Shown here: piece after piece, positions 8,883-25,463 of the stretch
How positions within the stretch are numbered: position 1 is the first letter of the stretch
How the letters are laid out: every line of letters starts with the position of its first letter
Assembly (NCBI GenBank): GCA_031276685.1
Contig: JAISMQ010000071.1
Location: 1-37,370, forward strand
DNA from: Treponema sp.
GTDB taxonomy: Bacteria > Spirochaetota > Spirochaetia > Treponematales > Breznakiellaceae
Direction of reading: 5' to 3'
Length of the DNA: 37,370 nucleotides
Notes under the pieces: model-generated
Told to the model about the DNA's origin: nothing
What the model saw: the letters and a program-made list of their open reading frames with translations, nothing else
Database searches by the model: none
Translations under genes and position numbers: made by a program

Positions 8883-9689
8883 TTACGCCTTAACTTCCCC
8901 AAAAAGACCGTCCCGGTAAGCGCCGATGTACTCCATGCACATCTCGTCCTTGCCCAGCAGGGCTTCGGCGGCGTAGATAAGGCCCAGCATGTCCTCGTTG
9001 GTGGGGTCGATAATGGCGCTGTCCATGCCGGCGCCCATGCAGAGGATGATAAAGCTGCGGTTGACAAACTTCCGCATCGGCAGGTTGAACGAGATATTGC
9101 TGGCGCCCGATGTGATGTGTACGTCGGGGCAGATTTCTTTTACCGTTTTGATGGTTTCGATGATCTTGGCGATACCGTCTTCGGAGGTGCAGAGCATCTC
9201 CACCACGGGGTCGACAAAGAGGTGGGACGGGTCGATCCCGTACTCCTTTGCCTTCGCGAGGATGCCCTTGAAAACGCCGATGCGCTGCTCCGCCGACTGG
9301 GGGATGCCCGTGTTGTCGCACAGCAGGGCGATGCAGTTCCATTCGGTACCCGCGATAACCGGGAAGATCTTCCCGATCTTGTCGCCTTCCAGCGACACCG
9401 AGTTTACCAGGCCCGGTTTTTTGCAGAATTTGACGGCTTCGGCAAAAACCCCGGGGTTGGGGCTGTCCAGGCAGATGGGGAGATCCGATTCCTGCTGGAC
9501 CAGATCGACCAGCCATTTAAGGGTTTCAATTTCCTGTTCGGGGGAAACCGAGGCGCAGACATCAAGGTAGGACGCCCTGGCGGCTGTCTGCTTCCGGGCC
9601 AGGCTTTTAATGAATTTTTCGTTCCGTTCGGCAATGGCGGCGCCGGTTTTGGGAATGGATCCGTTGATCTTCTCACCAATGATAATCAC
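8883..9689 (-). CDS. acsE: Methyltetrahydrofolate:corrinoid methyltransferase (AcsE/MeTr-like, pterin-binding domain)
   Basis: From GTG 9689 the protein begins (M)IIIGEKINGSIP, the same N-terminus type as MeTr (MLIIGERING...). SD GAGGTG lies 6 nt upstream. The pterin-binding TIM-barrel pattern continues throughout. The track start at 9752 adds 21 unsupported residues. Confidence 0.85.
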   Translation of the reverse strand: MIIIGEKINGSIPKTGAAIAERNEKFIKSLARKQTAARASYLDVCASVSPEQEIETLKWLVDLVQQESDLPICLDSPNPGVFAEAVKFCKKPGLVNSVSLEGDKIGKIFPVIAGTEWNCIALLCDNTGIPQSAEQRIGVFKGILAKAKEYGIDPSHLFVDPVVEMLCTSEDGIAKIIETIKTVKEICPDVHITSGASNISFNLPMRKFVNRSFIILCMGAGMDSAIIDPTNEDMLGLIYAAEALLGKDEMCMEYIGAYRDGLFGEVKA

Positions 9690-9723
9690 AGTGATCACCT
9701 CGCGTAGAATATTTGTAAGTCCT

Positions 9724-9750
9724 GCGGAAATTCCACTGTGGAATTTCCGC
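9724..9750. promoter_or_regulatory. Perfect 13-1-13 palindrome, candidate operator in the acsE / metF divergent intergenic region
   Basis: GCGGAAATTCCAC-T-GTGGAATTTCCGC was read directly. It abuts a TAATAT hexamer (minus strand, 9751-9756) and lies about 35 nt upstream of the acsE-like GTG. Confidence 0.5.
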
Positions 9751-9922
9751 ATATTACCCCGCGATCCTAGATAGCCTTACCTTCCCTGTCAATTGAAAAC
9801 GGCCGGAAACGCCAAAGTGAGCAACATAAGGCTATTTTTGAGCATAAAAATCATGGTATGACAGTAAAATCTTGCCTATAACTGACAGGGTAACTGGTAA
9901 AAACAACCGGAGGTGTCAGTCG

Positions 9923-10720
9923 ATGCAGCATCACATTCAAAATAAAATATACCACGTAGAGATTCTTCCGCCCAAGCAGGCTACCGAAAAACTGCGGGAA
10001 GATTTGAAAAGCTTTACGGACAAGTACGAAAAGGTCCGGCAGAGCGGCAGGTGCGCCTGTATTACCGACAACGCCATGGGCCTGCTGGCCTTTCAGGGCG
10101 CCGAGTGTATTGAGGAGCTGGGCCTTGCGGTGAACAAGGGGCAGGTGATGATACACCTTAACACCTTCCACACCAAAGAAAATCTCCACGAGATACTGGA
10201 TTCCTGTAAAAAGCTGGGGATCGAATACCTCCTGGTGGTGTCGGGCGACGGGTCCGACCGGCTGCCCAAGCTCCAGCCTGCCGATGTGGGCGCGGGGGAC
10301 GCGCAGTCGGTAACTTCGGTGGAGCTGCTGCGTTACATCGGCCGGGAATACCCCGGGGTCTTTACCATGGGGGTGGCCTTTAACCCCTACGAGCCGCCGG
10401 AACACGAGTTTGAAAAGCTTAGGCGGAAATTTGACGCCGGGGCGTCTTTTATCATCACCCAGCCGATTATCGAGAAAAACGCCGTCATTGACGAAATGCT
10501 TGCAAAGTACCCCGGCGTGCCGGTGATTATCGAAGCCTGGATGAGCAAGAAGATAAGCCTGCTTTCCGACGCGGTGGGCTACACCATTCCGGAAGACACC
10601 CCCTTCGATCCCATCGCAACGTTAAAGCAGATCCACCAGGACTACCCCGGCTGCGGCGTGTACCTTTCGCTGCTGGGATTTAAAACCCAGTACCCGCTGA
10701 TTTCTGAAACCTGGAAGTGA
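9923..10720 (+). CDS. metF: Methylenetetrahydrofolate reductase (MetF family)
   Basis: MTHFR blocks are present: VEILPPK (cf. FEFFPP), LVVSGDG (cf. ALRGD), FDAGASFIITQP (cf. VDAGANRAITQF), VPVIIEAWM. I set the start at ATG 9923 with SD GGAGGTG 7 nt upstream. Confidence 0.85.
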   Translation: MQHHIQNKIYHVEILPPKQATEKLREDLKSFTDKYEKVRQSGRCACITDNAMGLLAFQGAECIEELGLAVNKGQVMIHLNTFHTKENLHEILDSCKKLGIEYLLVVSGDGSDRLPKLQPADVGAGDAQSVTSVELLRYIGREYPGVFTMGVAFNPYEPPEHEFEKLRRKFDAGASFIITQPIIEKNAVIDEMLAKYPGVPVIIEAWMSKKISLLSDAVGYTIPEDTPFDPIATLKQIHQDYPGCGVYLSLLGFKTQYPLISETWK

Positions 10721-10730
10721 GGAACCAATC

Positions 10731-11519
10731 ATGAAAATAGTCGTTTGCATCAAACAGGTCCCCGGAACAACGGACGCGAAAATTGACCCGGAAACAAAGC
10801 GCATTGTCCGCGAGGGCATTGCCGCGACCATCAACCCCTTCGACACCTACGCGATAGAGGAAGCGGTGCTGTTACGGAAAAAGTACGGCGGCGAGGTTAT
10901 CGCCCTTTCCATGGGGCCGGAACGCGCCCAGGCCGTTATCCGGGAGGCCATTTCGGTGGGCGCGGACCGGGGCCTGCTGCTTTCGGACCGGGCGTTTGGC
11001 GGTTCCGATACCTGGGCGACAAGCTACGTGCTTGCCAGGGTTATCGAAAAAATAGGCGGCGTGGATCTGGTGCTGTGCGGCAGGCAGGCGATTGACGGCG
11101 ACACCGCCCAGGTGGGGCCCGGCATCGCGGCCCACCTTGACTGGCAGCTTGCCGCGCATGTCATGGCCGTGGACGCCGTGTCCGGTACGACTATTACCGT
11201 GCGGCGCATGCACGAGGACGGCTGCGATATCTGCGAGTTGGATTTTCCGGCGGTAGTTACCGTGGTAAAGGGTATTAACACGCCGAGGATCCCCACCCTT
11301 AAAGGGCGGCTGGCGGCGGAAGAAGCCGAAATTCCCGTGTGGAAGCCCGCCGACATCGGCGCCGATCCCGGCAAGATCGGCCTTGACGGTTCCCCGACCA
11401 GGGTGGTGAAAACGGAGCCGCCGCCGCCCCGGGGCGGGGTGTCCAAAAAGATAAGCGGAACCCCCGGCGGCTGCGCGGCGGAACTTTTCAAAGAACTGAA
11501 ACAGCGCGGGATACTTTAA
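10731..11519 (+). CDS. etfB: Electron transfer flavoprotein beta subunit (EtfB/FixA-like)
   Basis: MKIVVCIKQVPGT... N-terminus and the DLVLCGRQAIDGDTAQVGP segment. It starts 10 nt after the metF stop. SD GAGGAA is present. Confidence 0.92.
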   Translation: MKIVVCIKQVPGTTDAKIDPETKRIVREGIAATINPFDTYAIEEAVLLRKKYGGEVIALSMGPERAQAVIREAISVGADRGLLLSDRAFGGSDTWATSYVLARVIEKIGGVDLVLCGRQAIDGDTAQVGPGIAAHLDWQLAAHVMAVDAVSGTTITVRRMHEDGCDICELDFPAVVTVVKGINTPRIPTLKGRLAAEEAEIPVWKPADIGADPGKIGLDGSPTRVVKTEPPPPRGGVSKKISGTPGGCAAELFKELKQRGIL

Positions 11520-11536
11520 GGAGACAGGCAAACAAA

Positions 11537-12556
11537 ATGCTGATTACCAACGATAGCGACAAGCAGGATTTTTCAAACGTATGGGTCATGGCAGAGATCT
11601 CCCAGGGGAAGCTGCACCCGGTTACCCACGAGCTTTTAGGCGCCGCCCGGCGTCTCGCTTCCCTGCGGAACAAGAAGGTCGGCGCGGTACTCTTTGGCGC
11701 CAAGGTTAAGGATCTTGCGGCCTCTCTTATCCCCTACGGCGCGGACCTTGTCATTGTTGTCGAAGATCCGCGCCTGGACGGATTTAACGACGAACTGGAA
11801 GGGCGGCTTTTGAAGCGGCTCATTGAAAAGTACAGGCCCGAGACCGTGCTTTACGGCGCGACCACGCGGGGAAGGGCCCTGGCGCCCCGGGCGGCGGTCA
11901 TGTGCAACTGCGGCCTTACCGCAGACTGCACCGGGCTCGATATCGATCCGGAAAACGGCGACCTACTCCAGACCCGCCCGGCCTTTGGCGGCAACATTAT
12001 GGCTACCATCCGCTGCTCAAAACACCGCCCGCAGATGGCCACCGTAAGGCCGCAGGTTATGAAGGCCCCCGCCCCGGATTCAGGACGCCGGGGGGAGATC
12101 CTTACCGAATCCGTAGACACATCCGAGGCGGAAAAGATCAAACGGATTCTCAAATACATCCGCAGCACCGAAGCGACGGTGAACCTGGCGGAAGCCCGGA
12201 TCATCGTTTCCGGCGGCCGGGCCATGAAGGGGAGCGAAGGCTTCAAGGTCCTTGAAGCCCTGGCGGCCCAGTTTGGCGGCGCGGTGGGCGCGAGCCGCGC
12301 GGCGGTTGACGCCGGGTGGATCTCTTACGCCCACCAGGTAGGCCAGACCGGGCAGACCGTACAGACCAAAGTCTACATCGCCTGCGGCATCTCCGGCCAG
12401 ATTCAGCATCTGGTGGGCATGCAGTCCTGCGAGACCATTATCGCCATCGACAAGAACCCGGACACCCCGATGATGCAAATGGCGGATATCGCGGTTTCCG
12501 GCGATCTTTTTGAAGTTGTCCCCGCGCTGACGGAACTTCTGAAAAAAAACTCATAG
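11537..12556 (+). CDS. etfA: Electron transfer flavoprotein alpha subunit (EtfA/FixB-like)
   Basis: GLTADCTGLDI, TRPAFGGNIMATI, and the C-terminal FAD-binding block VYIACGISGQIQHLVGM. Confidence 0.92.
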   Translation: MLITNDSDKQDFSNVWVMAEISQGKLHPVTHELLGAARRLASLRNKKVGAVLFGAKVKDLAASLIPYGADLVIVVEDPRLDGFNDELEGRLLKRLIEKYRPETVLYGATTRGRALAPRAAVMCNCGLTADCTGLDIDPENGDLLQTRPAFGGNIMATIRCSKHRPQMATVRPQVMKAPAPDSGRRGEILTESVDTSEAEKIKRILKYIRSTEATVNLAEARIIVSGGRAMKGSEGFKVLEALAAQFGGAVGASRAAVDAGWISYAHQVGQTGQTVQTKVYIACGISGQIQHLVGMQSCETIIAIDKNPDTPMMQMADIAVSGDLFEVVPALTELLKKNS

Positions 12557-12565
12557 GAGGCTGCC

Positions 12566-14239
12566 ATGTTAACCGACGCTGAAATCGCCCGGGCGGCGGC
12601 TCTGCAGCCGATTGCCGGCATAGCGGAAAAAATCGGCATCGCAAGCGACGATCTGGATTTTTACGGGAAGTACAAGGCCAAACTTTCGCGGGCGCTGCTC
12701 TCCCGGCTTTTTGCGAAACAGGAAAGCGGCAGGCTTATCCTGGTAACGGCTGTCAACCCTACGCCGGCGGGGGAAGGCAAAACTACCACCAGCGTGGGCC
12801 TTGCAATGGCCCTTAACCGCATCGGCAAGAAAACGGTCCTAGCCCTGCGGGAGCCATCCCTGGGGCCCGTGTTCGGCGTAAAGGGCGGCGCCGCCGGCGG
12901 CGGCTACTCACAGGTGCTGCCCATGGAGGAGATCAACCTTCACTTTACCGGGGACTTCCACGCCATTACCAGCGCGAACAACCTGCTTTCCGCGATGATC
13001 GACAATTCCCTCCAGCAGGGCAACCCTTTGGGGATCGATCCCAAGCGCATCCTCTTTGCGCGGGTCCTTGACATGAACGACCGCGCGCTGCGGAACGTTA
13101 TCGTGGGCCTTGGCGCAAAAGCTGACGGCGTTACCCGGCAGGAACGTTTTACGATCACGGTGGCGTCGGAAGTTATGGCGATACTGTGCCTGGTGACGGA
13201 TCTTGCGGATCTGAAAAAGCGCCTGGCGGGGATCCTGGTTGGCTATACCTACGAGGGGAAGCCCGTGTACTGCCGGGACCTGGGGGCGGAAGGATCCATG
13301 GCGGCCCTGCTGCGGGACGCCCTGCAGCCGAATCTGGTGCAGACCATCGAGGGGACCCCCTGCCTTATCCACGGCGGGCCCGTCGCCAATATCGCCCACG
13401 GCTGTAACTCGGTGCTTGCCACCAGGGCGGCCCTTAAGCTTGGGGACTACGCCATTACCGAAGCGGGTTTTGGCGCGGACCTGGGGGCGGAAAAGTTTAT
13501 CGATATCAAGTGCCGGTCGGCGGGGCTTGCCCCTTCCGCCGCCGTCCTGGTAGCCACGGTGCGGGCGCTCAAGTACAACGGCGGCGTGTCCAAGAATCAC
13601 CTTAAAGAGCCGAACCCCCAGGCCCTGCGGAAGGGTCTGCCGAACCTCCAGGCCCACCTTGAAAACCTTGCCAAGTTCGGCGTACCCGTCGTGACGGCTA
13701 TCAACCACTTCTACACGGACACCGATGAGGAGATCGACATTGTAAAAAAAGCGGCGGAAGCCGCCGGCTCGGAAGCGGTGGTGTCCAAAGCCTTCGCCGA
13801 AGGCGGCAAGGGCGCCGAAGAACTGGCGAAGGCGGTCGTCCGGGCGGCCGAGTCGGGCAAGGCCGCCTGCCGCCAGCTCTACGATACGGCGCTGCCGGTA
13901 AAAGAAAAAATCGCCATACTCGCCAAAGAGATCTACGGCGCGGGCGACGTTGTGTACAGCGCCGATGCCGAAAAGGGCGTCGCGGAGATCGACAAGCTCG
14001 GCCTTTCGGGGCTTCCGGTCTGCGTGGCGAAAACCCAATACTCCCTTTCGGACGATGCCGCGCTTCTGGGCCGCCCGCAGGGCTTTACCCTCCACGTCCG
14101 GGAACTGCGGCCCTCGGCGGGCGCGGGCTTCCTTGTGGCCGTTACCGGGGAAATCATGACCATGCCCGGCCTCCCCAAGCGTCCGGCGGCCCTGGACATT
14201 GACGTGGACGAAGCGGGAAATATCCTCGGTATCTTTTAA
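12566..14239 (+). CDS. fhs: Formate--tetrahydrofolate ligase
   Basis: Full-length FTHFS (557 aa) with the [15 protein letters not shown] nucleotide-binding motif. SD GGAGG is present. Confidence 0.97.
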
Positions 14240-15060
14240 TGGCTATTCTGTCCCCGGCGCAGATCTTCGATCACGCCGTTGCCGCCGGGGTGGCGAAAAC
14301 CGGCAGGAAGTTTTTAAGCACCCTTGTGCTGGCCTTCCTTGCGGGGGCCTTTATCGCCTTTGGCGCGGAAGGTTCCAACATGGCGGCCTTCAACCTCCTT
14401 TCAAAGCCCGAAACCTACGGGCTGGGCCGGGCCCTGGCGGGCGCCGTTTTCGGTATCGGTTTGATGCTGGTTCTGATCGCCGGGGGCGAACTTTTTACGG
14501 GCAACTGCCTTATCATCGCGGGGGTTCTTGACCGCAAAGTAAGCTGTTCAAAAATGCTCCTTAACTGGCTCGTGGTGTACGCGGGCAACTTCGCGGGCGC
14601 CCTGTGCATCGCTTATTTTATGAACGTATCGGGGTTGTTTTCCGGGGGCGGCGGCCTTTTGGGCGGCATGACCATAAGAATAGCCGCCGGAAAAACGGCC
14701 CTTTCGTTCTGGCCCGCCTTTGTCCTGGGGGTCCTGTGCAATTGGATGGTGTGCCTTGCGGTGTGGGTTTCATACGCGGCGGACGAACTTCCGGGGAAAC
14801 TTCTGGCCTGTTTTTTTGTCATCTTCCTCTTTGTCACCTCGGGCTTTGAACACAGCGTCGCCAACATGTACTACGTGCCCGCCGGCATTTTCGCAAAGGC
14901 AAACGGCGCCTGGGCCGCCGTTTCGGGCGTCCCGGCGTCCCAGCTTGAATCCCTTAACTGGGGCAATTTTGTGGTAAAAAACCTTTTCCCCGTTACCCTG
15001 GGGAACATTGCCGGCGGTTCCGGTATGGTAGGCGCGCTGTACTGGCTTGGATTGAAATAG
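14239..15060 (+). CDS. fdhC: Formate/nitrite transporter family channel (FdhC/FocA-like)
   Basis: FNT family: six hydrophobic helices and the FEHSVANMYY motif. The ATG overlaps the fhs TAA (TAATG). Confidence 0.9.
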   Translation: MAILSPAQIFDHAVAAGVAKTGRKFLSTLVLAFLAGAFIAFGAEGSNMAAFNLLSKPETYGLGRALAGAVFGIGLMLVLIAGGELFTGNCLIIAGVLDRKVSCSKMLLNWLVVYAGNFAGALCIAYFMNVSGLFSGGGGLLGGMTIRIAAGKTALSFWPAFVLGVLCNWMVCLAVWVSYAADELPGKLLACFFVIFLFVTSGFEHSVANMYYVPAGIFAKANGAWAAVSGVPASQLESLNWGNFVVKNLFPVTLGNIAGGSGMVGALYWLGLK

Positions 15061-15095: not shown

Positions 15096-15962
15096 ATGGC
15101 GATTATCATTGACGGCAAGGCCATAGCCGCAAAAGTCCGGGACGATGTGAGGCTCCGCACGCAAAAACTAACGGAGCGGGGGATACGGCCCTGCCTGGCG
15201 GTGATCCTTGTCGGAGAAAACCCCGCGTCGGTATCCTACGTGACCGGCAAAGAAAAAGCCCTGGCGGAAGCGGGAATGGACGGGCGGGACATCAGGCTTC
15301 CTGCGGCCACCAGCGAAGCGGAACTCCTTGCCCTTATCGCCGCCCTGAACGCCGACAGCGCGGTACACGGGATTCTTGTGCAGCTCCCGCTTCCCCCGCA
15401 CATCAGCGAGGACCGGGTAATAAACGCCATCAGCCCCGAAAAAGACGTGGACGGTTTTCACCCCGTGTCGGTGGGGAACATGGTCCTGGGCAGGCCCGGC
15501 TTCCTGCCCTGTACGCCCAACGGGATCGTGTACCTGCTCAAGGAGATGCAGATCAAAACCGCCGGGGCCCACGCGGTTATCCTGGGCAGGTCGAACATCG
15601 TGGGGAAGCCCCTGGCCAGCCTGCTTATCAGGCGGGACGTGAACGCCACGGTCACCGTCTGCCACACGGGGACGCCGGATTTTTCACTCTACACAAAACA
15701 GGCGGACATCCTTATTGCCGCGGTGGGAAAGCCCGGCCTGGTGACCGCCGGCATGGTAAAGCCCGGCGCGGCGGTTATCGATGTCGGCGTCAACCGCGTG
15801 CCGGATTCCTCCCGGAAATCGGGCTTCGTCCTCCGGGGCGATGTTGACTACGACGCCATCGAAAAAATCGCGGGCTGGATCACCCCCGTGCCCGGCGGCG
15901 TCGGCCCCATGACCATCGCCATGCTCATGCGGAACGTAGTCGAAGCCGCCGAGACCCCGTAG
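15096..15962 (+). CDS. folD: Bifunctional methylene-THF dehydrogenase / methenyl-THF cyclohydrolase
   Basis: Typical FolD sequence (SYV.GKEKA, GILVQLPLP, DVDGFHP, GRSNIVGKP, PVPGGVGPMT). Confidence 0.95.
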   Translation: MAIIIDGKAIAAKVRDDVRLRTQKLTERGIRPCLAVILVGENPASVSYVTGKEKALAEAGMDGRDIRLPAATSEAELLALIAALNADSAVHGILVQLPLPPHISEDRVINAISPEKDVDGFHPVSVGNMVLGRPGFLPCTPNGIVYLLKEMQIKTAGAHAVILGRSNIVGKPLASLLIRRDVNATVTVCHTGTPDFSLYTKQADILIAAVGKPGLVTAGMVKPGAAVIDVGVNRVPDSSRKSGFVLRGDVDYDAIEKIAGWITPVPGGVGPMTIAMLMRNVVEAAETP

Positions 15963-15997: not shown

Positions 15998-16978
15998 TTA
16001 AGACACCCCGCCCGGTTCGCGGATCGCAAGCTTGTCGCAGCGCCGGAAGCCGTGTTCCGCCATGTACAGGGCGATGCCGTCGATAATTTCCGTCATGGCG
16101 CAGGGATTGGCGAAGGTTGCCGATCCAACCTGGACAGCCGCAGCCCCGGCCAGAAGAAATTCCAGGGCGTCCTCCGCGTTGGCAATGCCCCCCATGCCCA
16201 CGATGGGGACGGGCGGCCGGGGGGCGCCGGGGGGCCGCAGGGCTTCCCACAGTTCCCAGACCATACGCAGGGCGATGGGCCTGACGGCGGGGCCGGAAAG
16301 GCCGGCGCTGGTGTTGTCGAAAACAGGCCGCCGCAGGCGGGTATCAATCGCCATGGCTTTGAAGGTGTTTACCAGTGAAAGGGCGTCCGCGCCGGATTTG
16401 ACGCAGGCGCGGGCCACCGCCGCCAGGTCCGGGGCGTTGGGGGAAAGCTTTACCATAAGCGGCTTGTCCGGGGCCGCCCCGCGCACCCGTCCGGTTACAA
16501 GCGCGGCGGCCTCCGCCTCCAGGCCAAAGGCCATGCCCCCGGCTTTTACGTTGGGGCAGGAAATGTTGAGTTCGATCATGTCAATCGCCGCATGGTTAAG
16601 GAGGGCCGCCCCCTCCGCGTATTCCTCCGCCGTGGAACCCGAAAGATTGGCGATAACCGCCGGGCCCAGGCTGCGGAGGGCGGGGAGTTCGTGTTCGATA
16701 AAAGCCGGAATACCGGGGTTCTCCAGGCCGATGGAATTCATCAGCCCCGCCGGGGTTTCGTGGAGCCGCTGCCCGCCGTTGCCCGGCCGCGGATTAAGGG
16801 TAAGGCCCTTGGTGCAGATACCGCCAAGCCGGGCAATATCCAGGAGCCCCGCGTACTCCCTGCCGTAACCAAAGGTCCCGGACGCGGCAATCACGGGGTT
16901 TCTGAACAGGACCCCTGCGATGGTAACCGACAGGTCGGGGCCGGGCCGGCCGGGAAGAGGCGGGGTAGGATCCGTCAC
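15998..16978 (-). CDS. pyrD: Dihydroorotate dehydrogenase 1B catalytic subunit
   Basis: NPVIAASGTFGYG and the class-1 DHOD pattern. I set the start at GTG 16978, which overlaps the pyrK TGA (GTGA). The track extension to 17167 runs inside pyrK. Confidence 0.9.
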   Translation of the reverse strand: MTDPTPPLPGRPGPDLSVTIAGVLFRNPVIAASGTFGYGREYAGLLDIARLGGICTKGLTLNPRPGNGGQRLHETPAGLMNSIGLENPGIPAFIEHELPALRSLGPAVIANLSGSTAEEYAEGAALLNHAAIDMIELNISCPNVKAGGMAFGLEAEAAALVTGRVRGAAPDKPLMVKLSPNAPDLAAVARACVKSGADALSLVNTFKAMAIDTRLRRPVFDNTSAGLSGPAVRPIALRMVWELWEALRPPGAPRPPVPIVGMGGIANAEDALEFLLAGAAAVQVGSATFANPCAMTEIIDGIALYMAEHGFRRCDKLAIREPGGVS

Positions 16979-17820
16979 GGGTTCGCCCCCGTCGATGCGC
17001 TGAGGCCCGCCGCCGGAAAAATATCCGCCGCCGGGAAGATCGGGCCGTCGGCGCAGCAGCGCCGGTTCCCCGCCGCCGTCTTGACCGTGCAGCCCAGGCA
17101 GGCCCCCACGCCGCAGGCCATGGATCGCTCCATGCTGACATAGCAGGGGACCCCCGCAATCCGGCACTGTTCCGCCACCGCCCGGAGCATGGGCAGGGGG
17201 CCGCAGGCGAACACGCAGGGACGGCCCCGGTACTCCGCAAAATCCGGTATCCGCCCCCGGCGGCCCTCGCTCCCGTCCTCGCTGGCGACCAGCAGGGACG
17301 CCGCCCGGTCCCGCAGTGATTCCAGCCCAAAGGAAGCGGACCTGAACCCGGCGTACAGATCGAACCCGCCGCCCAGCTCGTCCCCCAGGGCCGCCAGCGG
17401 GGCAATGCCGATACCCCCGCCCACCAGGGCCGGGGCCCCGCCCAGGACCGCTTCGCCTGGCGGGGTATCCCCGTCCCCGGTTTCGCCGCGCGGAATGGCC
17501 TGCGGCAGAAAATCCTTCCAGCGGTTACCCAGAGGCCCGGTAAGGGCCGCCCCTTCCCCCGCCCGCAGTTGGCCAAGCTCCCCGGTCCCCCGGCCTTTTT
17601 TCAGCACCAGAAAACTAAGCCGGCGGGAAACCCCGTCCCAGCGGTAGACGCTGATGGGCCGGGGGAGAAAGGGGCTCCCCCTCTGTGCCCTGATCATGAA
17701 AAACTGCCCCGCCGCCGGCGCCGGGCCGGGCCATTCAAAATCGAGGCGGAAAACGGCGGCGCCAAGATCGGCCCTGGCGATCAGCGGGCAGATTAGGTAG
17801 CGCCTGGGGGAAGGAGCCAT
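16975..17820 (-). CDS. pyrK: Dihydroorotate dehydrogenase electron-transfer subunit
   Basis: FNR-like fold plus a C-terminal 2Fe-2S cysteine cluster (MACGVGACLGCTV...C). Confidence 0.9.
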   Translation of the reverse strand: MAPSPRRYLICPLIARADLGAAVFRLDFEWPGPAPAAGQFFMIRAQRGSPFLPRPISVYRWDGVSRRLSFLVLKKGRGTGELGQLRAGEGAALTGPLGNRWKDFLPQAIPRGETGDGDTPPGEAVLGGAPALVGGGIGIAPLAALGDELGGGFDLYAGFRSASFGLESLRDRAASLLVASEDGSEGRRGRIPDFAEYRGRPCVFACGPLPMLRAVAEQCRIAGVPCYVSMERSMACGVGACLGCTVKTAAGNRRCCADGPIFPAADIFPAAGLSASTGANP

Positions 17821-20511: not shown

Positions 20512-20520
20512 AAGGCGAAG

Positions 20521-20665
20521 TTTTCAGGGCGGGGTGAGCCCGGCAGACCCGGAAGGGTCCCGGCAATTCCCCACCGGCGGTATAGCCCGCGAGTCCGGCC
20601 CCGGCGGGGCAGGATTGAACCGGTGGAATTCCGGCGCCGACGGTACAGTCCGGACGGAAGAAAAA
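20521..20665 (+). promoter_or_regulatory. FMN riboswitch (RFN element) aptamer
   Basis: Conserved RFN blocks were read directly: CAGGGCGGGGTG...AATTCCCCACCGGCGGTATAGCCCGCGAG...AGGATTGAACCGGTGGAATTCCGGCGCCGACGGTACAGTCCGGACGGAAGAAAA. P1 pairs TTTTC (20521-20525) with GAAAA (20660-20664). Confidence 0.85.
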
Positions 20666-20705
20666 CGACGACCGCGTACAGGCGATCTTGAATTTCCGAA
20701 GACAG

Positions 20706-20739
20706 GCCCTTGAGGAGCGATCCTTGGGGGCTTTTTTTT
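20706..20739 (+). terminator. Riboswitch expression-platform terminator
   Basis: GCCCTTGAGGA-GCGA-TCCTTGGGGGC (11 bp including G-U pairs) followed by T8, located 40 nt before the rfuA-like start. Confidence 0.8.
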
Positions 20740-20778
20740 GGGCTTGCGGGCGCGGCGGGCGGCATCAGGAGGTGCATT

Positions 20779-21810
20779 GTGAAAAGGGGACTGCTGACGG
20801 TCATGGCCCTGCTTGCGGCGGGGCAGGTTTTTGCGGCGGGAATGAGGGAAGACAGGGGGGAGGGGGATTTTTCGGTGCTGGTCTACATCACCGGCGTGGT
20901 GGCCGGCAGCCCCCCCTACGAACTGCTGGTAGAGGGCGCCCAGGAATTTGCCGCGTCCCATTCCGGCGTTACGATCAAGGTCTACGAGGCGGGCTTTAAC
21001 CAGGCGGAGTGGGTAGAACAGCTTACCTCGCTGGTGGCGGGGGGCGCGTTTGATCTGGTCCTTGGCTCCAACCCTTCGCTGCCCGACATTTGCGTAAACG
21101 TGGGGAAGAAATTCCCCGGTCAAAAATTCGTCATTACCGATGCGGAGTTCCGGGGCAACCCCCAGATCAGCACCTACCTCTACAACCAGTACGAACAGTC
21201 CCTCTACCTGGGCTACCTGGCGGGGCTTGTAACCACCAGTTCCATGCCCCATGCGAACCGGACGAAAAAAATCGGGGTTATCGCCGCCCAGGAGTACCCC
21301 ATCCTGAACAAGCATATCGTCCCCGGTTTTCTGGACGGGGCCCGCCTGGCGGACCCGGCGATAGAGCTTGACTTCCGGGTTATCGGCAACTGGTTCGACG
21401 CCAGCAAAGCTGCGGAACTTGCCGGGGGCATGATCGATGCCGGCGTGGACGTGTTCGCCTCCATCGCGGGCGGCGCGGCCCAGGGGCTGATCCGCAGCGC
21501 CGCCGGGCGGGGGGCCTACATGGTGTGGGACAACACCAACGAGTACCGGCAGGCGCCGGGGATCATCGTGGGCTGCGGGTTTATGGCGCAGAAAAAACTG
21601 GCCGAGGAGATCCTTGCCGATGCCGTCGCGGGGAAGATCAGCTACGGGTCTTCCCGTACTGTCGGCGTGAGGGAAGGCTACCTGGATTTTATCGGCGGCG
21701 ATCCTGATTACATCGCCTCCCTGCCCCAGGATATTCGGGACAAGTTCGGCGCTTTTATGGACGATATTCGCGCCGGGCGGGTTGGGTACACGGTCCCTCC
21801 CCTGCGCTGA
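20779..21810 (+). CDS. rfuA: BMP-family ABC substrate-binding protein, predicted riboflavin-binding (RfuA-like)
   Basis: BMP/PnrA-like pattern (GFNQ, DLVLG, FVITD, IGVIAAQEYP, NWFD, DVFASIAGGAAQG). I set the start at GTG 20779 after SD AGGAGGTG. Signal peptide MKRGLLTVMALLAAGQVFAAG has no Cys, so it is not a lipoprotein. An FMN riboswitch lies upstream. Confidence 0.8.
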   Translation: MKRGLLTVMALLAAGQVFAAGMREDRGEGDFSVLVYITGVVAGSPPYELLVEGAQEFAASHSGVTIKVYEAGFNQAEWVEQLTSLVAGGAFDLVLGSNPSLPDICVNVGKKFPGQKFVITDAEFRGNPQISTYLYNQYEQSLYLGYLAGLVTTSSMPHANRTKKIGVIAAQEYPILNKHIVPGFLDGARLADPAIELDFRVIGNWFDASKAAELAGGMIDAGVDVFASIAGGAAQGLIRSAAGRGAYMVWDNTNEYRQAPGIIVGCGFMAQKKLAEEILADAVAGKISYGSSRTVGVREGYLDFIGGDPDYIASLPQDIRDKFGAFMDDIRAGRVGYTVPPLR

Positions 21811-21823
21811 CCGGGCGGACGGC

Positions 21824-23382
<1,559 letters not shown>

Positions 23383-23386
<4 letters not shown>

Positions 23387-24591
23387 GCGGCGATAGCGGC
23401 GGTCTGGGGGGCTGGCGTACCAGGCAGCCTTCGCCGGGGCTGGGGGGCCAGCGGGGGCCGCCGGGAACGGCCCGGGCGAACACGACCGCCCCCGGCCTGC
23501 GGAGTCCGGAGTTCCCCCGCTACCCAAGCCTCTACACCGCTGCCGGAATGGCCCTTATCCTTGTCATTTCCCTTGCCCTGGTTGTCGCCCTGGCCTTCCT
23601 TTTCAGCAAGAGCCCCGGCAGGACGCTGTGGTTTTTTTTCCTGGGCCCCCTGCAGAATCGCTACCAGTCCGGCAATATGCTCAACGGCGCCGTGCCCCTG
23701 ATCTTCGGCGGCCTGGGGGTCTGCATCGCCATGAAGGCGAACAGCTTTAACCTGGGGGGCGAGGGGCAGATCTACGCCGGGGCTTTTGTCTCCACCCTTG
23801 CCGCGGTCGCCCTGGGGGACTGGGCCGGGCCGGCGCTGCCAGGCATGCCTGCGGCCCTGTCCGCGATCCTGGGCTGGTTCGCGGTTGCGGCGGCCCTGCT
23901 GGCGGGGGCGGTCTTTGCCGGCGCGGCGGCCTGGGTTTCCGGTTTCTGCCGGGCCAAATGGAACACCAGCGAGCTGATCACCAGCTTTCTTGTTTCCGGC
24001 TCCCTGGTCCTGATCGTCAACTACCTTGTAACCGGGCCCTTTATGGATCGGGAAACCAACCTCCTTTCCACGGAAAAAATACCGGAGCTTTTCCGGCTCC
24101 CGCTGATTCTTCCCCCCTCGAATTTAAGCGCCGCCCTTTACGCCGCCCTGGGGGCGGTAGTCCTGGTTTCGCTGTTTTTGTCGCGGACCCGGACGGGTTA
24201 CGAGATCCGCATGACCGGAAGCAACGAGCTGTTCGCCCGCTACGGGGGCATCGAGACGGGGCGGATCACCATGCTTGCCATGTTTCTCAGCGGCGCCTTC
24301 TACGGCCTGGCGGGGGGCATTTCCGTATACGGGACCTACTACGCCACGATAAAGGAATTCTCATCCGGCCTGGGCTGGAACGGCCTGGCGGCGGCCCTTA
24401 TCGCCCGGTTCCGCCCCGCCCTTGTTATCCCTGCGGCGGTGTTCTTTGCCTGGATCAGCGCCGGCGCCCGTATGGCTATGCAGTTCTCCGATGTCACGCT
24501 GGAACTGGCCTCCATCGTGCAGGGGCTTATCCTGCTGCTGGCGACAAGCCAGGTGCTGCTGGATCTTTTTAAAAGGAGTAGCCCCCGGTGA
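23383..24591 (+). CDS. rfuC: ABC transporter permease (RfuC-like)
   Basis: BMP-type permease with multiple TM helices. GTG 23383 overlaps the rfuB TGA (GTGA). The first 55 aa are Gly/Pro/Arg-rich, so ATG 23548 (347 aa) is an alternative start. Confidence 0.8.
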
Positions 24592-25463
24592 GCTTCCCCC
24601 TGCTGCACAGCGCGGTGAATATCATGACGCCCATCCTCTTTGCCGCCCTGGGGGGGCTTTTTACCGAGCTGTCCGGAATGCTCAATATCGCCCTGGAGGG
24701 CCTTCTCCTGACCGGGGCCTTCGCGGCGGCGGCGGGGGCCTATTACACCGGGAGCCTTGCGGGGGGGCTTGCCGCAGGGATTCTAAGCTCTGTACTGCTG
24801 TCATGTCTGCTGGGCGCAGTAATTCTAAGACTCCGCGCCAATGTGTTTGTCGCGGGGCTTGCGGTAAACCTGCTTGCCGGGGGGCTTTCGGTTGTTCTGT
24901 CCTTCCACCTTTTCGGCAAACGGGGGGTAGTAAACCTGCCGGGCCTCCCCCCGCTTCCCTCGCCGCATATTACCTCCATCCCGATCCTGGCCGAACTGTT
25001 TTCGGAACACAGCCCGTATATGTACGCCGCCCTGCTGGCCCTTGCCGCAAGCGCCGTGATCCTCCGCCAAACCCCCTTTGGGTTCCGGCTGCGCTCCTGC
25101 GACCGTTACGCAAGCGCGATGGTTTCGCTGGGGCTTAATCCTGACCGCTATCGGTTTTGCGCCTATCTTATATCCGGGCTGTGCTGCGGTATCGGCGGCT
25201 CTTCCCTTTCCCTGGGGCTTGGGGCCTTTGTCCCCAACATCTCCGCCGGAAAGGGCTGGATCGCCCTGGTGGTTATCTTTCTGGGAAACCGGAAACCCCT
25301 GGGGCTTCTGGGGGCGGCCTTTGTCTTTGGCCTGGCGGAAGCCTTTTCCAATTACGCGCAGGGGATCTTTCAAATCAGCGCGGATTTTATCCTCGCCATT
25401 CCCAACATCTTTACCCTGCTGGTCATGATCGGCATGTCGGTATACACGGGCCGCCGGGAATAG
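24588..25463 (+). CDS. rfuD: ABC transporter permease (RfuD-like)
   Basis: Second BMP-type permease. GTG 24588 overlaps the rfuC TGA (GTGA). Confidence 0.85.
   Translation: MSFPLLHSAVNIMTPILFAALGGLFTELSGMLNIALEGLLLTGAFAAAAGAYYTGSLAGGLAAGILSSVLLSCLLGAVILRLRANVFVAGLAVNLLAGGLSVVLSFHLFGKRGVVNLPGLPPLPSPHITSIPILAELFSEHSPYMYAALLALAASAVILRQTPFGFRLRSCDRYASAMVSLGLNPDRYRFCAYLISGLCCGIGGSSLSLGLGAFVPNISAGKGWIALVVIFLGNRKPLGLLGAAFVFGLAEAFSNYAQGIFQISADFILAIPNIFTLLVMIGMSVYTGRRE

Follow-up and report, generated by a model that had tools for sequence, protein, structure and literature searches.

A divergent methylenetetrahydrofolate reductase-like gene in tight linkage with bifurcating-type etfB and etfA genes in Treponema and other anaerobes

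The stretch of DNA considered here (hereafter, the window) corresponds to 37,370 nt of Treponema sp. contig JAISMQ010000071.1, with a G+C content of ~60% and 40 open reading frames (ORFs) that were scanned against Pfam. A first-pass annotation of the window had pointed to a metF gene, encoding methylenetetrahydrofolate reductase (MTHFR), that is directly followed by genes for an electron-transferring flavoprotein (Etf), and had proposed that the three products could form an NADH-dependent, ferredoxin-reducing enzyme. Indeed, the forward strand contains sequences encoding a 265-residue MetF-like protein predicted to adopt a divergent MTHFR-fold TIM barrel (9923-10720; Pfam MTHFR, 51 bits), EtfB, the small subunit of a bifurcating-type Etf (10731-11519; Pfam ETF), and EtfA, the 339-residue large subunit with domain II, which binds flavin adenine dinucleotide (FAD; 11537-12556; Pfam ETF and ETF_alpha). 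These are followed by genes for Fhs, a formate-tetrahydrofolate ligase (12566-14239; Pfam FTHFS, 875 bits), a FocA-like formate channel of the FNT family (14239-15060; Pfam Form_Nir_trans, 260 bits) and FolD, a methylene-tetrahydrofolate (THF) dehydrogenase/methenyl-THF cyclohydrolase (15096-15962; Pfam THF_DHG_CYH and THF_DHG_CYH_C). Against the NCBIfam FocA model, the channel scored 220 bits, under the model cut-off of 290. When the spacing between these six genes was recalculated from the ORF coordinates, the values reported earlier, namely 10, 17, 9, -1 and 35 nt, were exactly reproduced, with the start of the channel gene overlapping the fhs stop by 1 nt. On the reverse strand, and divergent to metF, is a gene encoding a pterin-binding, MeTr/AcsE-like methyl-THF:corrinoid methyltransferase, termed MeTr below (8883-9752; Pfam Pterin_bind).

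The start of metF was assigned to the ATG at 9923, given the Shine-Dalgarno sequence GGAGG found 11 nt upstream and given that all homologues begin at the equivalent residue. Within the divergent intergenic region (9753-9922), one sigma-70-like match was detected on the reverse strand, at 9792-9764. No Rfam element, be it a riboswitch or otherwise, was found upstream of metF, and sigma-54 promoter-like matches appeared at a frequency not above chance, with none lying within the intergenic region. The promoter and terminator scans, being at about chance level, were uninformative on co-transcription.

The assignment of the first of these genes as metF was considered by family, fold and active site. 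The MetF-like protein scored 51.2 bits against the Pfam MTHFR family (PF02219; cut-off, 24 bits), covering profile positions 9-186 of 287, and 36.6 bits against the NCBIfam MetF equivalog TIGR00676, for which the cut-off is 293.7 bits. These weak scores point to a divergent MetF. In phmmer searches, the best E-value against all PDB sequences was 2e-4, while among 1.84 billion cluster representatives, 135 passed as relatives at E <= 1e-3 and no more than 26 did so at E <= 1e-30, with MetF proteins of canonical length first appearing at E ~1e-5. Within the clade, which includes sequences from Treponema, many clostridial orders, Atribacterota and others, identity was 65-92%, with a median pairwise value of 70%. 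By these comparisons, the MetF-like protein is placed in a small, isolated and highly conserved family of predicted MTHFR fold. An AlphaFold2 model of the protein (pLDDT of 90) was next compared with the PDB using Foldseek. The top 15 matches were all MTHFRs (TM-scores of 0.65-0.73; E-values down to 6e-12), these structural neighbours coming from yeast, Thermus, Chaetomium, human and Haemophilus and sharing 16-21% identity with the MetF-like protein.

Residue-level correspondence was examined by alignment to Escherichia coli MetF, the sequence of which was entered by hand; the canonical MetF encoded at locus L085 (see below) gave the same columns. Glu13, Asp109 and Gln180 of the MetF-like protein align with the catalytic residues Glu28, Asp120 and Gln183 of the E. 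coli enzyme, Thr48 and His78 align with the flavin-contacting Thr59 and His88, and Arg168/Lys169 align with Arg171/Lys172, of which the lysine contacts the flavin. Each of these positions is invariant across the MetF-like family. By contrast, the position of E. coli Phe223, a residue that stacks on NADH and on folate, is occupied by Ala, and the helical insert of ~40 residues that precedes the last strand in NADH-using MetF is missing. The MetF-like protein therefore presents the fold and catalytic residues of MTHFR yet falls outside the NAD(P)H-dependent equivalog, such that the original assignment held for fold and active site but not in the sense of an ordinary acetogen metF. The absence of both Phe223 and the helical insert fits an enzyme that does not itself bind NADH, and one may speculate that a protein-bound flavin, and not free NADH, serves the active site.

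A protein so distant from characterised MTHFRs could instead be an MTHFR-fold flavoenzyme, or even a non-flavin protein, that acts on another substrate and has the Etf as its redox partner. The small number of relatives detected among the cluster representatives would be in line with this, as would a 47%-identical relative encoded in an operon together with etfBA, a glycerol-3-phosphate-dehydrogenase-like gene and glpK. Yet the MTHFR active-site positions retain Glu, Asp, Gln, His, Thr and Lys, none of the top structural matches is anything but an MTHFR, and no function other than MTHFR has been reported for PF02219 (PMC7857596). Moreover, genes for Fhs, FolD and the pterin-binding methyltransferase are persistently found nearby, a repeated adjacency that was counted in favour of the MetF-like protein and EtfAB serving as a folate enzyme. 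Another substrate is, as such, deemed distinctly improbable.

The Etf subunits were next compared with Etfs of known structure. EtfB scored 196-224 bits against solved bifurcating Etfs (CarD, Clostridioides difficile EtfB, T. maritima EtfB, A. fermentans EtfB and LctB), as opposed to at most 115 bits against the non-bifurcating ETFs of human, Paracoccus and Methylophilus. Likewise, EtfA scored 235-318 bits against solved bifurcating EtfA subunits, including CarE and LctC, and at most 161 bits against the non-bifurcating proteins. For both subunits, scores against the five solved bifurcating Etfs were thus roughly double those obtained with human ETF. The earlier view that the Etf is of the bifurcating type and not mitochondrial-like, based on two segments, was in this manner upheld, with both segments being present, namely GRQAIDGDTAQVGP at EtfB residues 117-130 (nt 11079-11120) and GLTADCTGLDI in EtfA. 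A check for second-FAD motifs showed that the EtfB segment GRQAIDGDTAQVG is shared without change by CarD and by EtfB of C. difficile. The human protein, ETFB, differs, reading GKQAIDDDCNQTG and being without the DRAFGGSDTWATS segment; this human sequence was entered by hand, with its 118 bits agreeing with the 114.7 bits of 1efv_B. The GRQAIDGDTAQVG and DRAFGGSDTWATS segments presumably line a second (beta) FAD instead of AMP. The C-terminal FAD-binding domain of EtfA was recognized by PF00766 (116 bits). Alignment of EtfA begins at CarE residue 66, past the N-terminal extension that we take to be a ferredoxin domain in both CarE and LctC. The EtfA considered here would accordingly be without such a domain, resembling the Etf of butyryl-CoA dehydrogenase (Bcd). 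By best-match placement and motif, the Etf is assigned to the bifurcating type (group 2).

To determine how widely the arrangement occurs, one genome per GTDB species was scanned with two peptide patterns of the MetF-like family, yielding 277 genomes. The best 80 of these loci were retrieved and neighbouring genes were identified by tblastn using the window proteins. Eight loci were truncated by contig ends, leaving 72 informative loci with at least 1.9 kb of downstream sequence. The order MetF-like, EtfB, EtfA was found in 71 of the 72, with median gaps of 31 nt between the MetF-like and etfB genes and 20 nt between etfB and etfA. Such recurrence in other species, across several phyla, indicates that the arrangement is not due to chance. 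Judging by record titles, the carriers comprise ~20 Spirochaetota, six of which are termite-type Treponema metagenome-assembled genomes, ~40 Clostridia and other Bacillota (including Saccharofermentanales, Caldicoprobacterales, Oscillospiraceae, Ruminiclostridium and Limnochordia), six Atribacterota, three Erysipelotrichaceae and two Lentisphaerales. The closest relatives of the window are metagenome-assembled Treponema genomes, with JAIRND010000217 (locus L003/L004) showing identical gene order and protein identities of 88-94%.

The linkage, which is the firmest finding of this analysis, was also apparent when approached from the Etf side. The best 120 EtfB homologues are found on contigs that match those of the MetF-like hits in length, and both of the two EtfB homologues sampled adjoin a MetF-like gene. 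Pairwise identities of the MetF-like protein co-vary with those of EtfB (r = 0.70) and EtfA (r = 0.75), values higher than those obtained with MeTr (0.40) or Fhs (0.56). In a genome of the Clostridium thermosuccinogenes type, a non-acetogen, the three genes appear on their own, between glycoside hydrolase genes and a gene for pyruvate:ferredoxin oxidoreductase. This indicates that the triad is the conserved core, with the folate genes being frequent accessories. That the MetF-like protein and EtfAB act together in some way is thus considered quite likely, and the idea of a dedicated enzyme made up of the three products has strong backing from these comparisons.

Operon membership is, of course, no proof of a complex, and locus L044 offers a MetF-like gene followed by fhs with no etf. 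It could be argued, therefore, that the genes are merely co-located and co-regulated, with the Etf acting for a dehydrogenase whose gene lies in another place and with electrons reaching the MetF-like protein directly from ferredoxin or NAD(P)H. Against this stand the retention of gene order and tight spacing across phyla at loci where the other neighbours vary, the stronger co-variation with the Etf subunits than with those neighbours, and the appearance of the triad alone in the C. thermosuccinogenes-type locus. In the characterised EtfAB systems, moreover, namely those of Bcd, CarC and LctD, the gene of the partner dehydrogenase lies adjacent. Co-location without functional partnership accordingly appears very improbable.

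The limits of the linkage were also addressed. Where identity to the MetF-like protein drops to 41-47%, relatives are not encoded directly beside etfBA, ruling out that the MTHFR-like superfamily as a whole is linked to Etf and making the tight linkage a property of the MetF-like clade. The 47%-identical relative mentioned above is found at locus L088 (1-6813), at the end of an operon, after genes for EtfB, EtfA, a GlpA-like DAO/Fer2_BFD protein, a Pyr_redox_2 protein, a DUF1667 protein and glycerol kinase; here, the wider MetF-like family occurs in another kind of Etf setting. As to the history of the cluster, in a comparison with loci L009-L083, the Fhs of the window shares 56-65% identity with Fhs of clostridial modules and 44-46% with that of most other spirochaetal modules, whereas the MetF-like protein and EtfB are 65-78% identical to their counterparts in both groups. 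This contrast points to different histories for parts of the cluster, consistent with horizontal transfer.

In agreement with the first-pass annotation, no gene for MetV, Hdr/Mvh or RnfC was found beside metF. The MTHFR_C (MetV), Hdr, Mvh and RnfC domains were not detected by Pfam in any of the 40 window ORFs, the MetV signature NGPCGG was not found in the six frames of either the window or 88 related loci, and HdrABC-MvhD, RnfC2 and NuoEFG modules were lacking from the window as well as from the related loci annotated with Pfam. The lack of all other electron-input modules was counted in favour of an enzyme composed of the MetF-like protein and EtfAB.

Considering the surrounding genes, Fhs, the channel, FolD, the MetF-like protein with EtfAB and the opposite-strand MeTr together would mean that every step from formate to a corrinoid-bound methyl group is encoded in the window. 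In 60 of the 80 loci, a MeTr homologue is encoded no more than 6 kb from the MetF-like gene, as is Fhs in 34, while a formate channel is found beside fhs in 16 loci and FolD is present in 10. MeTr scored 339 bits against NCBIfam PRK07535, a domain-level model with a cut-off of 259, and 117 bits against the AcsE model, for which the cut-off is 370. No genes for CODH/ACS (carbon monoxide dehydrogenase/acetyl-CoA synthase; acsA/B) or for the corrinoid iron-sulfur protein (CFeSP; acsC/D) were found within the 37-kb window, nor were they found in seven Pfam-annotated related loci. The term "Wood-Ljungdahl operon" used earlier is hence an overstatement, as it is the folate (methyl) branch, together with a divergent MeTr, that is encoded here. 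The triad being on its own in the non-acetogenic C. thermosuccinogenes-type genome also speaks for caution with this term. The possibility that MeTr is the AcsE of a CODH/ACS cluster was rejected, given its sub-cut-off score and given that the corrinoid proteins found nearby in related loci are of the MtaC type and not CFeSP.

Indeed, clustering of ORFs revealed ~25 of the 80 loci to contain genes for an MtaC-type corrinoid protein (B12-binding_2 and B12-binding), for RACo or for URO-D-family methyltransferases with a CobW partner; no corrinoid-protein gene of this set is found in the window itself. An MtaC-like corrinoid protein is encoded at eight Atribacterota-type loci (L033, L041, L046, L047, L052, L055, L063 and L064), five of which also encode the RACo activator (L033, L046, L047, L063 and L064), while a 543-residue URO-D-family methyltransferase with a thioredoxin-like C-terminus is encoded together with CobW at six Clostridia loci (L012, L017, L030, L039, L042 and L045). 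In addition, at L085 (8041-12621, on the contig of L010), a divergently oriented, canonical E. coli-type metF, encoding a 286-residue protein 36% identical to E. coli MetF, adjoins the MeTr, MetF-like, etfB and etfA genes. The presence of both in one genome suggests that the two MTHFRs are not redundant.

The corrinoid-related genes and the canonical MetF beside the module render a methyl-oxidising or methionine-related role as plausible as acetogenic reduction. Three roles can be considered. Formate-derived one-carbon units could be reduced to a corrinoid-bound methyl group which, in acetogenic treponemes, would feed acetyl-CoA synthase, with the channel importing formate. Alternatively, methyl groups of methylated substrates, delivered by corrinoid proteins, could be oxidised to formate, with ATP being gained at Fhs and formate being exported. 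Finally, methyl groups could be supplied to a corrinoid-dependent methionine synthase. The earlier suggestion that imported formate feeds the pathway is in keeping with the recurrence of the channel beside fhs, although import is one of two possible directions.

Taken together, we hold, with slightly better than even confidence, that the MetF-like protein and EtfAB make up one dedicated methylene-/methyl-THF oxidoreductase, which would be of the dehydrogenase-EtfAB type and coupled to both NAD(H) and ferredoxin. In a mechanism modelled on Bcd-EtfAB, CarCDE and LctBCD, the bifurcating FAD, situated where EtfB and EtfA meet, would accept a hydride from NADH. One electron would then reach a flavin of the MetF-like barrel by way of the FAD on EtfA's mobile domain II, while the other, low-potential electron would reduce ferredoxin or flavodoxin. 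Two such rounds would yield the reduced MetF flavin, from which a hydride would be transferred to methylene-THF to give methyl-THF, with Glu13 serving as acid and Asp109 and Gln180 positioning flavin and folate. The net reaction would be 2 NADH + Fd(ox) + CH2-THF <-> 2 NAD+ + Fd(red) + CH3-THF, where Fd is ferredoxin, with the reductive (bifurcating) direction leading from formate to methyl and the oxidative (confurcating) direction from methyl-corrinoid to formate and ATP. Potentials of -320 mV for NAD, -200 mV for methylene-/methyl-THF and -190 mV for pyruvate/lactate have been given (PMC5861303). With the folate couple being close to that of pyruvate/lactate, the reaction would be near equilibrium and should be reversible. 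Of the complex proposed in the first-pass annotation, the conserved linkage of the genes and the co-variation of their products were borne out; the physical complex, its flavin content, NADH use, ferredoxin reduction and direction in vivo are what we infer.

Several points weigh against such an enzyme. No characterised MTHFR is close to the MetF-like protein, whether gauged by its best PDB match, by structural neighbours or by NCBIfam score, and methylene-THF as the substrate of this protein would follow from genomic context and three conserved catalytic residues. Locus L044 dispenses with etf, and the more distant relatives are not directly beside etfBA. Finally, a bifurcating-type Etf sequence would be no guarantee of actual bifurcation, as the acryloyl-CoA reductase-Etf of Clostridium propionicum has been described as not reducing ferredoxin, and it is the Etf subunits of acryloyl-CoA reductase that were the second-best NCBIfam matches of both EtfB and EtfA.

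The last of these points also bears on a further alternative, namely that the complex is real but non-bifurcating, with the Etf relaying electrons between NADH and the MetF flavin and with ferredoxin playing no part. The evidence of linkage applies equally to such a relay, and transfer from NADH to methylene-THF is exergonic on its own. The conserved bifurcating-type segments of EtfB would, however, be superfluous for a simple relay, reduction of NAD+ by methyl-THF in the oxidative direction would be endergonic without a second driving reaction, and a plain NADH-dependent enzyme would be redundant in the one genome where a canonical NADH-dependent MetF adjoins the module. A non-bifurcating relay is hence thought unlikely.

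A broader proposal can also be put forward, albeit tentatively and with somewhat less than even confidence. The MetF-like protein and EtfAB might represent a sixth, previously unrecognised MTHFR architecture, one that would be all-flavin, reversible and NAD(H)/ferredoxin-coupled and that would have been spread by horizontal transfer among anaerobes of four phyla or more. For treponemes of the termite gut, it could serve as the MTHFR of the folate branch, perhaps filling the gap in Treponema primitia, while in non-acetogenic fermenters and Atribacterota it could support methyl oxidation to formate with a gain of ATP. As to that gap, metF and metV were both reported as missing from acetogenic T. 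primitia in a pan-genome study that described the alternative as unknown (PMC5039349). Among the best 120 matches of two MetF-like queries and among cluster members, none was named as a T. primitia protein, which is no evidence of absence.

Elsewhere in the window are rnpA-yidC-jag, a sigma-54 gene and pyrimidine biosynthesis genes, as well as three regions of separate note. An FMN riboswitch (RF00050, 83 bits) at 20516-20669 on the forward strand is directly followed, up to position 25463, by genes for a Bmp/PnrA-type binding protein, an ABC ATPase and two BPD_transp_2 permeases; by its gene content, the region spanning 20516-25463 resembles the RfuABCD operons of spirochaetes, with riboflavin uptake apparently under riboswitch control. 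A single forward-strand ORF at 43-1737 encodes an [FeFe]-hydrogenase large subunit, of which the C-terminal part is present, together with the Fe-S motif PF04060 and a signalling domain of the methyl-accepting chemotaxis type, making its product a candidate H2-sensing chemoreceptor, the true N-terminus of which may fall outside the window. Lastly, the longest pyrD ORF (15998-17167, reverse strand) includes 78 extra Gly/Pro-rich residues ahead of the DHO_dh domain and overlaps the pyrK ORF by ~190 nt in a stretch of 69% G+C. The real pyrD start is probably internal to this ORF.

How much ATP acetogenesis yields is decided by which electron carrier is used at the methylene-THF reductase step, and the same step is the thermodynamic bottleneck of methyl-group and acetate oxidation. 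With scores far below annotation cut-offs, the MetF-like protein may cause surveys of these pathways to score the MTHFR step as missing. Should the enzyme run in reverse, a fermentation route from methyl groups to formate, so far unrecognised, would be indicated for polysaccharide degraders, spirochaetes of the termite gut and Atribacterota of the subsurface.

An EtfAB-coupled, bifurcating MTHFR was hypothesised for clostridia over ten years ago, without gene linkage, and such coupling, once proposed for Clostridium ljungdahlii, was judged unlikely there, as every etfAB of that species has another neighbour (PMC8515935). With the triad, which is conserved in hundreds of uncultured anaerobes, that hypothesis now has three concrete genes that can be cloned as its candidate. 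A classification of MTHFRs from 2021 lists E. coli-type, flavin-free mycobacterial, MetFV, MetFV-RnfC2, MetFV-HdrABC-MvhD and NuoEFG-linked "X type" enzymes and includes no Etf type (PMC8515935). Nor was a description of the metF-etfBA arrangement found in the full-text literature searched, which comprised papers available without subscription. The MTHFR barrel and the bifurcating-type EtfAB are thus two known modules in an apparently undescribed combination.

When compared with known enzymes, the MetF-like protein shares its fold and the catalytic Glu, Asp and Gln with the single-subunit, NAD(P)H-dependent MetF of the E. coli/Thermus type, differing in its low identity to these proteins and in missing the Phe223 region and the C-terminal helical insert. 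The acetogen MetFV types (MetFV, MetFV-RnfC2, MetFV-HdrABC-MvhD and the NuoEFG-linked "X type") catalyze the same reaction step as that proposed here and, in the same manner, rely on an MTHFR barrel unable to use NAD(P)H directly that recruits an electron-input module; bifurcation has, moreover, been proposed for the Hdr-type MTHFR (PMC8515935, PMC5861303). The module of the window, by contrast, is without MetV and without an Fe-S module, would rely on all-flavin EtfAB for input and includes a MetF-like protein of a separate family. From the Etf side, the best sequence matches of both subunits are found in CarCDE (6fah), with CarD giving 224 bits for EtfB and CarE 318 bits for EtfA, and in Bcd-EtfAB (5ol2, 4kpu). 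In both systems, as in the window, the reductase gene lies beside etfBA, whereas their partners are of the acyl-CoA dehydrogenase fold and act on much more positive substrates, at -10 to -30 mV, in strongly exergonic, effectively one-way reactions. LctBCD of Acetobacterium woodii (PDB 7qh2) differs in that the partner is a GlcD-type FAD dehydrogenase and not an MTHFR-fold barrel, and in that LctC is longer, at 418 residues as compared with the 339 of the window EtfA, with the match starting from LctC residue 67. Still, LctB and LctC are among the top PDB matches of the window Etf subunits, and in LctBCD, a bifurcating-type EtfAB is likewise encoded beside a flavin oxidoreductase, the substrate couple, at -190 mV, is nearly that of methylene-/methyl-THF, at -200 mV, and the physiological direction is the confurcating one.

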